The notes beneath the pieces are model-generated. The model did not search any database. It saw nothing but the letters and a program-made list of their open reading frames with translations, and was not told the origin of the DNA. A program made the position numbers and the translations under genes. This document shows, in pieces, positions 2,893 through 8,496 of a stretch of 64,000 nucleotides of DNA. How positions within the stretch are numbered: position 1 is the stretch's first letter; every line of letters starts with the position of its first letter. Source of the DNA: a virus (taxonomy: Duplodnaviria; Caudoviricetes); IMG/VR virus record IMGVR_UViG_3300037455_000245, positions 41,229 to 105,228 of that record. One strand, 5' to 3'.

Positions 2893-2967
2893 CTGACATA
2901 TTTCACTAAGAAATCACATTCGAAGTACATTTAACTAGAGTATTAACAAAAAATTTTCATTATCAAA

Positions 2968-4362
2968 ATGGGAAAGAATAATAACAAGAAAACTCCTGCT
3001 GTTGAGGCTCCTGTAGTGGAGGCCAAGCAGGTAGAAGAAGTGGGTGGAAAGTCCGCTACCGCCACCATCGTCGATATGGCCGCAGGTAAGGGCTTAACCC
3101 AAAGCGAGAAGCTGCAGTTTGCCACAGAGCTGCGCCATCGCGTGTCCGAGTTAAGAGAAGAGGACAATCCTCCTCTCGAGATGATTAAGGGCTACAACAT
3201 GATCCGCGATATCACATTCATTGACCTGGCAGCAGGTGAGATTGCATGTGGTACCAGCGCGACTGGTTTCATATTCTCCGGAAACGAAGTTGCATACAAG
3301 GCTCTTTGTGGTCTTGCGTTGACAATGGGCGTTAAGATGCCGGACTTCAAGACTCTGCCAGCTCCTACAAAGGAACAGCTGCACAACGCTGGTCTGGAGG
3401 GTATCGGTGAGACAAAATATGTCGCCATCGAGAGCAAGGACGTGTCTAAGGAGACCAAAGAGAGAAAGAAGAAGGAGCGTAAGCTCAACGACGAAGCAGA
3501 GAAGGCTGACAAAGCCTATCTGACCGACCATACCAAGATTGAGACTCCTGAACAGCTCGGTGAGGCGCTTGGGTTTCAGTTGGTTAACCTTAAGGTTGCT
3601 AGTCCAGTTGAGCGTCTTATCACAGCAGCTCAGTTCTACCGTTCCTATCTTGAGGCTCGCGCCGAAAAGTCGGACAATCCGGAAGCTGAACTTGCTAAGA
3701 TCCACGAGAATTCTCTCGCTGATCTGCTTCAGGACATTAGCACTATGGTGCCCCCCACCTTCGCCATTGAAGGCTTCGGCAAGCACTTATGCAAGCTTGC
3801 GGAATCTAACGGAAGTATTATTCCTGCGTTCAACCTGTTCCGCAAGGCTTCCATCAATAAGACGACGGGAAAGTGCAAGTTCTCTGATGAGGAATGTGCA
3901 GTCCTGGTTCGCGTCATTATTGTATGGAATGCAAGCGCTCAGATCGCAAGTATCAGTAAGGATATCAAGCTTCTGAACAAGGACGCTAAGGCTAACGCCA
4001 AGGCTATTGAGCAGTGTACTGCTAAGATTCAGCATCAGCAGGACATCATCTCTCTCGCATCAGAGCCCGATTTCGATATCGCTGACAACTTCATTGCTGC
4101 ATACAAGGACAACGAACATGCTAAGCACAATCTCGCTGTAGCACTGTATAACAGCATCATATCTACGTACTATCCTGACGCTGATATCCCTGAGTTGGAA
4201 GTCGATACTGCATTGTTGAACGTTCAGCAGCGCATCGGCATCATCATAAACCTGTTCAACTCTGAGCTTGGTAAACGTGATGATTATTCTGAAGAAAACC
4301 TGATTGCATTCTCCACCGAGGACGAAAAGCCCAAAGAAGGTGAAGGATCAAAAAACTCATAG
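2968..4362 (+). CDS. Uncharacterised 464-aa protein, probably highly expressed; TAG stop
   Basis: Long ORF with strong AAG/GAG/CAG/TTC codon bias like the capsid gene; helical, Ala/Lys/Glu rich. Confidence 0.88.
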   Translation: MGKNNNKKTPAVEAPVVEAKQVEEVGGKSATATIVDMAAGKGLTQSEKLQFATELRHRVSELREEDNPPLEMIKGYNMIRDITFIDLAAGEIACGTSATGFIFSGNEVAYKALCGLALTMGVKMPDFKTLPAPTKEQLHNAGLEGIGETKYVAIESKDVSKETKERKKKERKLNDEAEKADKAYLTDHTKIETPEQLGEALGFQLVNLKVASPVERLITAAQFYRSYLEARAEKSDNPEAELAKIHENSLADLLQDISTMVPPTFAIEGFGKHLCKLAESNGSIIPAFNLFRKASINKTTGKCKFSDEECAVLVRVIIVWNASAQIASISKDIKLLNKDAKANAKAIEQCTAKIQHQQDIISLASEPDFDIADNFIAAYKDNEHAKHNLAVALYNSIISTYYPDADIPELEVDTALLNVQQRIGIIINLFNSELGKRDDYSEENLIAFSTEDEKPKEGEGSKNS

Positions 4363-4434
4363 TGGTCATTAAGGGAAAGGGCAAAGCCTTGATGACCAAA
4401 GTGAAGAATTACATTTTTGCTTAAACTGTGAGCT

Positions 4435-4926
4435 ATGAAACGGTTAACTACAGTAATATGTTGTATCTGTCTTATGGTAGCGGGAATCGGTCTTGCTATA
4501 TATGACTCAGATACGCATCTCAATGAGCTATATGCTGGCGAACCGGCTCCATTAGTATGGAATATCCCCAATGGGGGTGTGATACCACTCGATCTCCGAT
4601 TGGATTCGGAAAAGAGACAACCTGATATCCAGATGCGAGACTCTATCAACATCATCGATTCTATTCGATGGGTTGATAAGTATCGTTATCGTATAAAGTA
4701 TAAAACTGTGTCTGATCGCACAACAGCACGGGAAGCAGGTGAGCATCCGGACGGTGTCAATCCAGACACCTTAGCTGGACGTACTGCAACAATTTGTGCG
4801 CTGGAACGTGAGGAGCAACCCAGCGATACTGTTGGCACTCCTAAAGTGCCATCTATACAGCTTTCTGTCGGCGGAAAAGTTGTATATTCGAATGACGATA
4901 ATCACTCCACGGGGGAGAGTCAGTGA
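4435..4926 (+). CDS. Hypothetical exported or membrane-anchored protein
   Basis: N-terminus MKRLTTVICCICLMVAGIGLAIY is signal/TM-like; 163 aa. Confidence 0.75.
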   Translation: MKRLTTVICCICLMVAGIGLAIYDSDTHLNELYAGEPAPLVWNIPNGGVIPLDLRLDSEKRQPDIQMRDSINIIDSIRWVDKYRYRIKYKTVSDRTTAREAGEHPDGVNPDTLAGRTATICALEREEQPSDTVGTPKVPSIQLSVGGKVVYSNDDNHSTGESQ

Positions 4927-4984
4927 GGATTCACTGGCTCTCCGGCCATTGGGCATCCCGCTTAGTCCACGTCAACGGTCTCAT

Positions 4985-6860
4985 TAGCCGGGACGAAAGA
5001 GTACAACTTGATCCGAGAATATGTCGAGCCCCAAAGGCAAACTCAAAAGGTAGGATGAAATGCTGTATAGTCATACGTACTCTATGACAGAAAAGTATAC
5101 AGTAAGAGGTGTGAGAGGTGTATCAACACCTTGCTGCCTCCCGAGAACCGATTGGTGGGGAGGATTGCCAGCTAAACTCTCGTAAGTCGCAAGAAGCGCA
5201 AAATGAACCGTATCGACAGATCTACTATAATGATACATAGTAGTAGAATAACGTTACACGAGTTGAACATACAGTAAAGATGCCAAACCCTGTATGATGT
5301 ATCAATTCACTATTGCTGTAGTCCAGTGTTCCACGCAATCCAGGGCGTGTATGAAGGGATGAAGAATTATCTGAGTATATGAACCTAGCGGAAGGTTTGA
5401 CTGTCCGCGCCGTACCGTAACTACGGTCCTTGAAGAAATCCTTCCTGTGTCGAGACAGGATGACCACCTTTGAGGCCAAGGTCCCAATGGGTCACCGGGG
5501 ATGGGGTGCTGAGGAAAATATGATGAAGATGACCGCCAGGCTTTGGTCGTTCAAGCGGTATAAGACACGTGGAATTGATTCGTGCTAAAAGTAAATGACC
5601 ACCAGTTCGATGCAGGAACTGATTGATTAGTAGCGCCTAGAGGCGTGATTGCTGCCCGAGTGAAGGCCGGGATGAAAGCCTATTCAAACGGCACATAGTT
5701 CTAGTAAGCAAGAACTCACTGTGTAGATGGGAGATGTACCAGAGGAAATGCTGGAGTCGAAGGATGACAACCTGACAGTCAAAACCAAGTTTTTTACAAT
5801 ATCGGTCGATTCGAGGTCTATACATACCAGTGTAGAAGGAGATCGCCAACGTCTGTATAGGATAATATAGTAGAACACTGATATACTATATCAGCGAGAG
5901 TAGTAAACTCGTGTGCGGTATATCTTTAGTTACAAGCAAAACTATATGAAAGTAGCCAGATGAAGTTAACATGTTGAACAAAATTAAGTGTCCCTCTATG
6001 AAATCTATTACGTTATGTATAATCGGGATAGAGTCCGCTACCTCCTGTTGTATGGGAGAACATAGCCATTTTAGACGTATGATAGAGAAGCTTGAGTGCC
6101 AACCGTTTCTGAGAAGCAAGTAGCAGGATAGATAATAGTTTGGGGTTAGACTGCAAATCTAACTAATCGGCTTAGTCTATGAAGCAATATACGCAAACGA
6201 TGCAAGGCAGCCTATCGCAAAATGAAATCACCTCACTGTCTATGAGGGGTAAAGGAAATGAGTAATTAGTCCGTCGAAAGATGGTTCGCTGATGAAAAGG
6301 ACTCGATGAAGTGGCGCATTAGGTGGGTGATAAATCTTATAGCGTATGAGGTGGAATTCCTCCAGTATTCGCGCACTATAAACAGAAGCCAGCAGCAAAG
6401 CTGAATGTACAGTAAAAAGCCGTAGGTCCATCATGGGTTCTGGAGCCCTAGGCCATGTCCGATAAAGAAACACGTTCCTCTTGACGTGAGATGCCACATG
6501 CTGATAAACAACGAAGCCAGATCCAACTGGAAAGCAAATGGACGAGAACGTTAATGTTGCTGTTAGTCTCGTAAAATATTCAGAAGCATAGCAGACAATC
6601 TTCGACACTTATTTGGAACGTACAGCGAGAAGATACACTGCACCTTATTGGTTTACGTTATTTGCATCTATGAGCACTAGGCCGTGACCATCGTAAGATG
6701 TAGCTACTCTGCCAACGAGCGCAAATAATATTTTACAAAAACTAAATATTGTGTTTTATATTTGGTGCTTGATTGCACAACTGGCAATTAGCGCTTTTGA
6801 TCCTTATATAGAGATGGGCTTGTATATCCTACCGTTGGATTCCCGTCGTACGAGTTGAGC
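4985..6860 (+). ncRNA. Candidate very large structured non-coding RNA (~1.9 kb; ends approximate)
   Basis: No + strand ORF of 60 aa or more lies within 4988-7054. Nested long-range helices: 5004-5010/6851-6857, 5049-5056/6826-6833, 5163-5171/6781-6789, 5246-5254/6655-6663, 5370-5378/6576-6584, 5396-5405/5774-5783. Many local hairpins, several with G-U pairs and GNRA loops. Confidence 0.75.
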
Positions 6861-7054
6861 TTCACTTTGAGGAATATAGAAGTATGACAACTATGTAAGT
6901 AAACGCGCTTCCCATGAGCATAGCACAACCAGAATAAGAAACAAATTAGAAACACAACATACTTTTTATAGGCAACGTCCCGCCTTAGAAGTGGACAAGT
7001 TCATTACCTGATATCGTTGGTTAATCAATAACGATGTCAAAAAGGATATAAGGT

Positions 7055-7672
7055 ATGGCATATAACGAAATGGATATTGCCCTGGAGTCAGTACGACCCC
7101 AGGTTATCAACATTAGCCGCACGCTCCCAACTGGAGCAAAGTTTTACAAAGTAGAAGCAACTGACATTGATCAGGGCTTCGAAGAGCGCAAGAATCAGCT
7201 GATGGCTGATCCTAACACTCCTGAGTTTATTTTCAATCGTTCACCGCGCGTCATCGTGTTGAAGGACTTCAGCGTGAAGAGCCAGGACTTTGAGGTCGAC
7301 ATTGACGGCAACAAAGTGGTGGTCTTCAATAAGGGTACGAATGAGCAAGCCCAAGCAACGATCGTTGCTGGTGGTGTGAACTTTGGTCAGACCACCGATG
7401 AGGCCATGAAGGATGCACTTCGTGGGCAAGATCGTATCTTTGCCGACGGCATTAAGACCGCCACAAAGGTGAACGCTCTGAACGCAGCTGAGCTCTCCCG
7501 TGTGGAGGCCATGATCAAGTACTGGACTGGAAAGGCTGATGCCATCCGTTCAGCAATTGCTTCCAACAGCAAGAAGGTCAAGGACTACCAGGACGTTCTC
7601 GCTAAGTTCCGCAAGGATATCGATTTGTCTGCCGGAGACGGCGACGGCTTCGCAGTACAGGTTGAAGGATAA
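7055..7672 (+). CDS. Hypothetical protein with C-terminal coiled coil
   Basis: 205-aa ORF with highly biased codon usage; first gene after the long non-coding region. Confidence 0.85.
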   Translation: MAYNEMDIALESVRPQVINISRTLPTGAKFYKVEATDIDQGFEERKNQLMADPNTPEFIFNRSPRVIVLKDFSVKSQDFEVDIDGNKVVVFNKGTNEQAQATIVAGGVNFGQTTDEAMKDALRGQDRIFADGIKTATKVNALNAAELSRVEAMIKYWTGKADAIRSAIASNSKKVKDYQDVLAKFRKDIDLSAGDGDGFAVQVEG

Positions 7673-7674
7673 GT

Positions 7675-8277
7675 ATGGCGAACTCGGTTGATGATGCAAA
7701 GCTGCAGGCTCCCGAGTTAATATCGCTCTTACTGAAGGAACCAAAAATCCTTCAGAAGATTGTATTGGCTATGAAGCCTAAAGCGCGGGGTTACACCAAA
7801 TGGAAGGTTGTACCTGAAGAAGAACGAATTTATCTGGGAAAATATTCCTGGCATGGATTTGGAGAATTCTGGAACAATCTTATCAAATGCTGTGATCACA
7901 TCTCTTTCGACGATTTCTACATTAAAGTGTGGGATGCGTTGGTTGAGATGACTGCTGGTACTGAAGCACACGAAGCCGTGCTTGAAGGACTTTCTCGTGA
8001 AGTTCTCATGCAAGGCATCCACGCAAAGGACCAGAATATACTTCATCGATTCTTCGATGTATGTCGACATTTAACATCCGATGGATATTGGAGGGACAAG
8101 GGACTGAAGCGGGATAATCCGCCTCACCACCATTTTAAAGGCTGTCCGTATTCTGGTGATGTAGAAATAGAGGTAGAACCTCATGGCCGACCGCGACCTG
8201 GAGTATTTCGGGTGGTAGACTCGGTTGGAGATGCATTTGAGATTATTAATGTGAAATGGTTAGGTGGACGTCATTAA
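7675..8277 (+). CDS. Hypothetical protein
   Basis: 200-aa ORF starting 2 nt after the previous stop. Confidence 0.8.
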   Translation: MANSVDDAKLQAPELISLLLKEPKILQKIVLAMKPKARGYTKWKVVPEEERIYLGKYSWHGFGEFWNNLIKCCDHISFDDFYIKVWDALVEMTAGTEAHEAVLEGLSREVLMQGIHAKDQNILHRFFDVCRHLTSDGYWRDKGLKRDNPPHHHFKGCPYSGDVEIEVEPHGRPRPGVFRVVDSVGDAFEIINVKWLGGRH

Positions 8278-8288
8278 ACGGGTACGTC

Positions 8289-8496
8289 GGGCCTCTGCGG
8301 GGGTCTGTAGTTATTGGTCTGAGGGCTGGTGCTACAATTGGTATCTGTGTTAATGATAACACTTAAACAAGTCGCACAAACGTTTTAAGTGCGCTCAAAA
8401 TAGACACAACAGCTATACTTTGATTAGGAACTCTGCGGGGGGCCATATAGTCAAAGTATAGCTGTCAGGTTTCTAATGAAGTGATTTATTAGAAAC
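8289..8496 (+). other. Structured intergenic region with long hairpins and a repeated C-TGCG-G loop
   Basis: 18-bp stem 8409-8426/8448-8465; stem 8469-8496; CTCTGCGGGGG occurs at 8293 and 8431. Confidence 0.6.

Follow-up and report, generated by a model that had tools for sequence, protein, structure and literature searches.

Why does a crAss-like phage of the ruminant gut leave 2.1 kb of its early gene block without a gene, between two genes of the same strand? The stretch of DNA analysed here, called the window below, is 64,000 nt long and corresponds to bases 41,229-105,228 of a 105,228-bp virus record (IMGVR_UViG_3300037455_000245), which CheckV rates as 100% complete; coordinates are window positions unless stated otherwise. 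The region in question, 4927-7054, contains no credible open reading frame (ORF), as the first-pass annotation of this DNA had stated, and is flanked by two + strand genes. It is a conserved, base-paired non-coding RNA locus, which the Suoliviridae (the ‘delta’ group of crAss-like phages) keep at a fixed position. We regard it as probable, with considerable room for doubt, that the locus is the gene for one very large, multi-domain structured + strand RNA of ~2 kb, the body of which lies at ~4930-6926.

A gene-free gap kept across the Suoliviridae

Within 4927-7054 no ORF exceeds 55 aa on the + strand or 122 aa on the − strand, and each of the six frames has 21-52 stops, with TAA, TAG and TGA all common. 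Reassignment of TAG, TGA or TAA singly opens no frame in the region. This null result matters because reading TAG as Gln does open the late genes of this phage; these − strand genes (20557-63577) are fragmented into short ORFs under the standard code, and the recoded ORFs include one of 2,423 aa (26 TAG) and one of 5,732 aa (65 TAG). In the early + strand block such recoding is unnecessary. The region 4927-7054 is non-coding.

When the window is compared with phages in GenBank by blastn, only islands of the gap find matches, and these are in Crassvirales, family Suoliviridae, subfamily Oafivirinae (genera Buhlduvirus, Bohxovirus, Cacepaovirus and Burzaovirus), where the syntenic site is an unannotated gap of 2.0-2.2 kb or carries a single dubious − strand ORF. 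A profile of the downstream protein retrieved 23 IMG/VR loci and 36 metagenome loci, all with an ORF-free gap of 2.0-2.3 kb, as have all 64 loci reached through the flanking protein, and a conserved 19-nt motif of the RNA retrieved 89 IMG/VR contigs. The element is present in a total of 131 loci (100 distinct sequences) from the rumen of cattle and sheep and from the gut of pig, macaque, human and lemur. The corresponding gap is also present in Dulem virus 42 and Burzaovirus. Gene order and a gap of 1.85-2.5 kb are kept in the Boorivirinae phages cr55_1 and cr10_1, the Uncouvirinae phage cr125_1 and the Loutivirinae phage cr4_1, and in all related phages examined, from four Suoliviridae subfamilies, an ORF-free gap of 1.9-2.5 kb separates the same pair of small genes. 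It is interrupted by a gene in none of the homologous loci. Across the homologous gap, the public records of Bohxovirus and cr7_1 show one isolated − strand ORF and that of Dulem virus 42 a dozen very small ORFs (L003, 2443-2949; L065, 2750-3232; L155, 6384-8499, in coordinates of those loci), all of which look like annotation artefacts.

Throughout the family the gap is placed between a gene of 130-165 aa and a gene of 180-215 aa, and in the window it sits in the early/middle gene block, ~2.5 kb downstream of a phage sigma-factor gene. Both flanking ORFs are complete, the upstream one ending with its own stop and the downstream one starting with its own ATG, and searches of PHROG, Pfam and the ESM Atlas with the flanking proteins gave no lead beyond the upstream sigma factor. 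Between genera, the flanking proteins share only 24-31% identity. For the gap sequences, identity is 50-60% overall (~50% between clades), with islands at 0.75-0.88 column identity and at 75-95% nucleotide identity, and between the islands stems are altered by compensatory substitutions. By this comparison the RNA is better conserved than its neighbours, and islands of the gap are still found by blastn. In X3, a public run recorded as RNA, the contig over the region is 98% identical to the window and the contig over the next genes 90%.

Base pairing under compensatory change

Four tests of base pairing did not involve fitting an alignment to a structure: independent folding, transfer of RNAalifold structures between clades, counts of covarying stacks, and comparison of arms anchored on loops. 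When 13 representatives were folded singly by partition function, 840 column pairs recurred in at least four of seven clades versus none in three shifted controls, and the same folding gave 37 consensus helices, every one of which spans 93 nt or less. When an RNAalifold structure from clades A and B was applied to clades C-G, 63% (460/731) of the cells in which both bases differ from the source consensus were still standard pairs; the reverse transfer, from C-G to A and B, gave 61% (267/439), and slid partners gave 33-44% for both. A MAFFT alignment of 42 sequences contains 11 antiparallel stacks with at least three compensatory pairs versus none in a parallel-stack null, or eight versus none if only Watson-Crick pairs are allowed. 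Finally, when arms flanking conserved loop motifs were compared within and between sequences, without an alignment, five of six loops beat all 2000 permutations.

Covariance models were built for the two end domains. Model R1, for the 5′ domain (4960-5134), has 36 pairs in seven helices and matches 88 loci in the Oafivirinae, all at full length and in one orientation, with expectation values (E) of at most 1e-11; the window itself scores 88.5 bits (E 3e-18). Among 74 distinct sequences, 96.0% of cells are paired, compared with 76.2% in shuffled and 32-45% in slid controls, and 29 of the 36 pairs are changed on both sides; such cells number 517 versus 129 ± 9 after shuffling, a value that none of 500 shuffles reached. 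Model R2 covers the 3′ domain (6805-6930) with 19 pairs and matches 67 loci. In this case 88.1% of cells are paired among 56 distinct sequences (72.9% shuffled, 34-58% slid), and all 19 pairs have compensatory changes, in 159 cells versus 37 ± 6 (0/500). Many pairs of both models occur as four or five pair types. Covariation in the homologues, by which the first-pass annotation had proposed to judge the RNA, is thus strong. The R1 and R2 matches lie 1.88-2.12 kb apart in 13 loci compared.

R1 also recognizes the start of the gap in other subfamilies, namely in Loutivirinae cr4_1 (75 bits, E 3e-16) and Boorivirinae cr55_1 (34.5 bits, E 2e-6), and its matches in Uncouvirinae cr125_1 and Boorivirinae cr10_1 are marginal only. 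R1 at the start of an ORF-free gap of 1.9-2.5 kb, downstream of a set of sigma-factor, 460-500-aa and 130-165-aa genes, is taken here to define the giant RNA of Suoliviridae, and the window has this arrangement. The model is specific: in 596 Gb of prokaryote genomes the 19-nt motif occurs at 81 places, by estimate about the number expected by chance, of which only four are real by R1, and 76 chance matches of the motif in bacterial genomes gave no R1 match at all. The four are phage contigs binned in metagenome-assembled genomes (MAGs) of Segatella copri, Bacteroidaceae and Lachnospiraceae. Two complete-length phage contigs of ~101 kb carrying the RNA (L156 and L230) are binned in Segatella copri MAGs, which weakly hints at a host in Prevotella/Segatella.

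Between the end domains, counts based on the MAFFT alignment support helices throughout the region. At least 40 short- and medium-range helices with compensatory changes follow one another as hairpins and multi-helix domains, and three such domains have supported closing stems (5368-5372/5527-5531, 5865-5871/5941-5947 and 6189-6194/6342-6347). All supported helices span ~220 nt or less. In the most variable part (6183-6352), RNAalifold on the MAFFT alignment gives no pairs, because homologous hairpins are misaligned, and covariation there was judged by eye. The features of the locus are as follows.

4927-7054, + strand: ORF-free region, the whole conserved non-coding locus; no ORF under single recoding, gap kept in homologous loci.
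4930-6926, + strand: body of the proposed RNA, ~2.0 kb, with putative ends; patchy conservation and helices throughout, 3′ end weakly hinted at by RNA contigs.
4960-5134, + strand: 5′ domain, model R1 (29/36 compensatory pairs), with helices 4965-4968/4991-4994, 4976-4979/4987-4990 (invariant loop CUCAUUA), 5008-5014/5053-5059, 5022-5023/5044-5045, 5028-5030/5036-5038, 5061-5069/5096-5104 and 5106-5112/5126-5132.
5221-5247, + strand: hairpin 5221-5228/5240-5247; 5/7 pairs compensatory, folds independently in 5/7 clades.
5321-5360, + strand: three-part stem-loop 5321-5324/5357-5360, 5329-5331/5353-5355, 5332-5336/5345-5349; 5/5 pairs compensatory (42-sequence alignment).
5368-5531, + strand: multi-helix domain closed by 5368-5372/5527-5531 and 5376-5378/5518-5520 (4 and 3 compensatory pairs), with inner helices 5388-5391/5405-5408, 5409-5414/5422-5427 (loop CCGUAAC) and 5444-5448/5455-5459 (in relatives a T-loop-like UUCGAUU hairpin); 16/22 predicted pairs compensatory.
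5544-5621, + strand: helix 5544-5556/5589-5601 and hairpin 5603-5608/5616-5621, from consensus folding and alignment counts.
5765-5947, + strand: domain with hairpin 5765-5768/5778-5781, 5807-5811/5841-5845 with 5817-5823/5830-5836, and stem 5865-5871/5941-5947 around 5880-5887/5917-5924 and 5896-5898/5908-5910, from alignment counts; 6/7 and 3/3 pairs compensatory.
5994-6087, + strand: stem 5994-5999/6082-6087 around hairpin 6042-6047/6053-6058, from consensus folding and alignment counts.
6144-6164, + strand: hairpin 6144-6150/6158-6164, loop CUGCAAA; 5/5 compensatory.
6189-6347, + strand: central domain closed by 6189-6194/6342-6347 (4 compensatory pairs; stem variants by eye), with hairpin 6232-6238/6242-6249 (conserved loop CUGUCU) and conserved single strand AGUGGGUGAYAA; deepest contig coverage in three metatranscriptomes.
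6765-6778, + strand: hairpin 6765-6768/6775-6778, loop UUGAUU; 4/4 compensatory.
6805-6930, + strand: 3′ domain, model R2 (19/19 pairs compensatory), with helices 6816-6818/6842-6844, 6825-6829/6837-6841 (invariant loop UACCGUU), 6845-6851/6882-6888 and 6906-6909/6922-6925 (loop with CAUKAG).
7009-7051, + strand: hairpin(s) 7009-7015/7045-7051, alternatively 7011-7019/7029-7037; 5-6 compensatory pairs.
4435-4926, + strand: upstream flanking gene, 163 aa, no known family; syntenic in all relatives.
7055-7672, + strand: downstream flanking gene, 205 aa, no known family; used to retrieve related loci.

The typical element is a hairpin with an invariant loop on a freely covarying stem. Such loops are CUCAUUA, CCGUAAC, UACCGUU, UUGAUU, CUGUCU(C) and, in relatives, the T-loop-like UUCGAUU. 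ACCGT occurs 173 times in full-length homologues versus 55 expected, without enrichment of its reverse complement, and as ACCGU it stands at five conserved sites (5147, 5207, 5414, 6102 and 6831), at least two of which are in hairpin loops; CAUUAG-like loops recur at 4982 and 6914. Another short word, GATGA, is found ten times on the + strand of the region (3.1 expected), between 5054 and 6309, and never on the − strand. As a family motif, GATGA/GATGAA was rejected, since its enrichment in the window is not common to all clades. The hairpins at 7009-7051 lie directly 5′ of the ATG of the downstream gene, enclose an AAGGA ribosome-binding stretch and are the most strongly conserved part of the region; between them and the conserved structure ending near 6926 is a variable A-rich linker. 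To judge from the sequence, they are probably a separate translational control element, distinct from the large RNA.

This picture of successive local domains differs from that of the first-pass annotation, in which helices nested in strict order from the ends inward (5004/6851, 5049/6826, 5163/6781, 5246/6655 and 5370/6576), with two sub-domain closures (5396/5774 and 6043/6121), held together a 1.9-kb fold. All seven complementary pairs exist at these coordinates, but the long-range ones are not above chance and mostly not conserved. Uninterrupted stems of Watson-Crick and G:U pairs that span at least 300 nt number 379 at 8 bp or more versus 360 ± 29 in dinucleotide shuffles, and 139 versus 133 ± 15 at 9 bp or more; stems of 7-10 bp at spans of at least 300 or at least 1000 nt are equally many in shuffles. 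Relatives lack the nested pairs H3, H4 and H5 and the sub-domain closure S1. Among 59 distinct sequences aligned by R1 and R2, 13 have H1 fully paired and 57% of the H1 cells pair, and H2 shows changes on its 3′ strand only, a strand that covaries strongly with a local partner (6825-6829/6837-6841). Stacks linking the 5′ and 3′ domains number two, none of them compensatory, versus four in the parallel null, and one apparent long-range stack, 5035-5038/6768-6771, was discarded because on inspection it sets a stem against a loop without real covariation. The strictly nested architecture is not supported. The local hairpins proposed at 5061-5104, 5221-5247, 5414-5427 and 5443-5460 are real and conserved, and the GAAA hairpin at 6271 is kept with compensatory change, but only in part of the clade of the window.

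Within the helices defined by the models, G:U cells outnumber A:C cells by 249 to 56, in agreement with the earlier argument from G-U pairs on the + strand for an RNA rather than a DNA structure. Several helix positions are mostly G:U, such as one that is U:G in 64 of 70 sequences. The + strand is purine-rich in every homologue, and the flanking genes share its direction. The G:U excess, the purine-rich strand and the direction of the flanking genes together point to a + strand RNA rather than to a − strand RNA or a DNA hairpin, and the region is most likely a + strand RNA. The comparison was made within model helices, as counting covarying stacks with G:U or A:C allowed does not discriminate the strands, because chance A:C ‘pairs’ are frequent in A-rich sequence.

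One large RNA or several

Fifteen public runs recorded as RNA, from bovine and sheep gut metatranscriptomes, hold parts of the region. In run X1 the phage is identical to that of the window and contigs extend over the early block in its entirety. A second study supplied three runs in which the summed contig depth over 14 kb peaks at 5605-6538 (129-201, 54-63 and 51) and is near zero over the upstream genes; uncovered parts of the 14 kb in runs X3-X5 are not evidence of silence. Contigs of X1, X4 and X5, from the two studies, end at 6919-6926, at the 3′ edge of the last conserved hairpin, which weakly hints that the 3′ end of the RNA is near 6926.

Several observations weigh against a single 2-kb RNA or temper the evidence for it. 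Because no helix longer than ~220 nt is supported, the domains are not shown to fold as one molecule. The alignments of R1 and R2 were fitted to the structure under test and so lean to the model, although the margin is large nevertheless. The 3′ domain R2 is undetected outside the Oafivirinae. A scan of the + strand for sigma-70 promoters and intrinsic terminators gave scores at the level of shuffled sequence. Minimum free energies of the first 1000 nt and of six sub-domains, on both strands, are no better than those of dinucleotide shuffles (z −1.8 to +0.8, without significance or strand preference), at odds with the folding advantage looked for by the first-pass annotation; this comparison is a weak test and is outweighed by the covariation. 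The transcript data consist of assembled contigs only, mapped at ≥90% identity, from runs chosen for holding the region and with possible carry-over of DNA; they show that RNA libraries contain the region and do not inform on strand, ends or level.

The main rival to a single RNA is a cluster in which several smaller structured RNAs and cis-regulatory elements are independent of one another and separately made or processed, a reading that we consider unlikely though a serious competitor. It agrees with the local to medium range of the supported helices, with the lack of covariation between the 5′ and 3′ domains, and with RNA contigs that are fragmentary and uneven in depth along the region. 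Since the 5′ domain and not the 3′ domain is detectable in Loutivirinae and Boorivirinae, parts of the region evolve at different rates, and the report on the crAss-like phage phi14:2 names two intergenic RNAs (bioRxiv 10.1101/2020.03.07.982082). A cluster does not readily account for a total length and an R1-R2 distance that stay within ~6% across very divergent phages, for the uniform strand and purine bias, for a gap never interrupted by a gene, or for the lack of standout internal promoter- or terminator-like sites.

Explanations that do without an RNA of its own fare worse. It is improbable that the locus controls expression in cis, either as an exceptionally long, structured 5′ leader belonging to the two-gene operon that follows (7055-8277) or as a 3′ tail of the operon that precedes it. 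An X3 contig does extend over 6751-8431 with a depth similar to the RNA core, an X1 contig runs from 1813 into 5437, and a covarying, conserved hairpin surrounds the ribosome-binding site at 7009-7051; however, contigs of X4 and X5 cover the core but not the downstream genes, the conserved structure stops near 6926, before the variable linker, and a conserved multi-domain structure of 2 kb far exceeds the leaders known to us. More doubtful still is an element of the DNA itself, such as a replication origin, a packaging site or cruciform-forming DNA, in which the hairpins would act as DNA. Long non-coding regions of phages are often origins, and Watson-Crick covariation alone cannot separate RNA from DNA. 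Yet direct repeats or iterons, an AT-rich core and a turn of the cumulative GC skew were all sought at 4927-7054 and not seen, the region is present in RNA libraries, and each conserved G:U pair would be an A:C mismatch on the opposite strand, which is hard to reconcile with the G:U excess. That a protein gene is hidden by an unusual code, frameshifts or introns is hardly credible. TAG is indeed recoded in the late genes, but all three stops are frequent in every frame of the region, no intron model of Rfam matches, and relatives differ by indel-rich variable stems and paired double substitutions instead of being conserved codon by codon.

Known large RNAs and the possible role of the locus

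As the first-pass annotation had supposed, no known family is recognized. Rfam 15 gives no match in the gap of the window at the gathering score or at E up to 10, only tRNAs outside it, and none in the gap of eight divergent homologues at E up to 1. The covariance models of GOLLD (RF01998), ROOL (RF03087) and OLE (RF01071) match neither the window nor the eight homologues, and no description of this RNA was found in literature searches. Group I and group II introns were rejected, as Intron_gpI, Intron_gpII and group-II-D1D4 are without match and the flanking ORFs are uninterrupted.

GOLLD and ROOL are large ornate RNAs, common in phages and prophages, and the locus is ~2.5-3.5 times longer than either. 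They resemble the locus in being large, intricately folded, protein-free and phage-borne, with many conserved loops and covarying stems, and differ from it in that the locus matches no Rfam family even at E = 1-10. Some relatives carry tRNA genes at a distance of a few kb from the locus, which in the window is not tRNA-adjacent. Both GOLLD and ROOL form RNA-only homo-oligomeric assemblies by cryo-EM (PMC12286853). OLE, another large structured RNA, is regarded as a ribonucleoprotein scaffold, and by analogy the locus may be one too. The OLE model does not match the locus, and oap-type partner genes were not recognized beside it, the flanking proteins belonging to no Pfam or PHROG family. OLE itself is a bacterial RNA (Bacillota) of ~600 nt with known protein partners, and GOLLD, ROOL, OLE and raiA are all about 0.2-0.8 kb. 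To our knowledge, group II introns and rRNAs are the only bacterial RNAs in the ~2-kb size class. The locus shares with these the length and the multi-domain fold, but it matches no intron or rRNA model, has no intron-encoded protein and lies between complete genes. The earlier claim of a multi-domain RNA longer than GOLLD, ROOL and OLE therefore stands as to a conserved, densely paired and non-coding locus, and as to length only if the locus is one transcript.

Of small RNA genes nearby, the window has one for tRNA-Met (CAU) at 700-774, where the early block begins. In records of related Suoliviridae, a phage tmRNA is annotated a few kb 5′ of the sigma-factor gene (L239, 5510-5959; L240, 5021-5406), and several relatives have tRNA genes downstream of the gap. 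In cr4_1 and cr55_1, the DNA upstream of the sigma-factor block has further stretches of 0.8-1 kb that carry no + strand gene (region of L241, 5271-5768; L238, 4019-5065).

The closest parallel in a cultured phage is found in phi14:2, a crAss-like Cellulophaga phage. Transcripts of two long intergenic regions there exceed those of most genes, are present from the earliest time point and persist through infection (Drobysheva et al., bioRxiv 10.1101/2020.03.07.982082). Its record has a gene-free stretch of 1.7 kb (2905-4601 of that record), where small ORFs have been withdrawn, and R1 and R2 find no significant match there. Both phages thus have a long ORF-free stretch in a rightward early gene block of a Crassvirales genome. 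They differ in family, Steigviridae for phi14:2 and Suoliviridae for the locus, and in flanking genes. Moreover, abundance and persistence in phi14:2 come from an infection time course, while the locus is known from selected metatranscriptome contigs only, and no structure or conservation has been described for the intergenic RNAs of phi14:2.

If the locus is the gene for one large RNA, this RNA would be made as a single transcript, possibly excised from a longer early transcript, and would be stable and abundant. It may serve as a scaffold, the invariant loops of which bind phage or host proteins or other copies of the RNA, like GOLLD, ROOL and OLE, and would not act by antisense pairing to a target. 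Such a scaffold or ribonucleoprotein mechanism we infer from the invariant loops and from the precedent of ornate RNAs. Tentatively, and with more doubt than belief, we suggest that the ~2-kb single transcript is the largest structured non-ribosomal, non-intron phage RNA known and a hallmark of Suoliviridae, a self-assembling or protein-loaded machine of infection with the ACCGU and CAUUAG loops as docking sites.

Large structured RNAs to which no job has been assigned are rare, and every one of them has led to new biology or new principles of structure. A conserved 2-kb RNA in abundant uncultured phages of gut and rumen would extend their size range about three-fold, and the locus would supply a structural, family-wide counterpart to the abundant early non-coding RNAs of cultured phi14:2. 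Because public records carry spurious small ORFs across the locus, the annotation of phage genomes is corrected as well. Models R1 and R2 are a handle for finding the RNA in metatranscriptomes, and the family that keeps it, the Suoliviridae, is one of the commonest groups of gut crAss-like phages.

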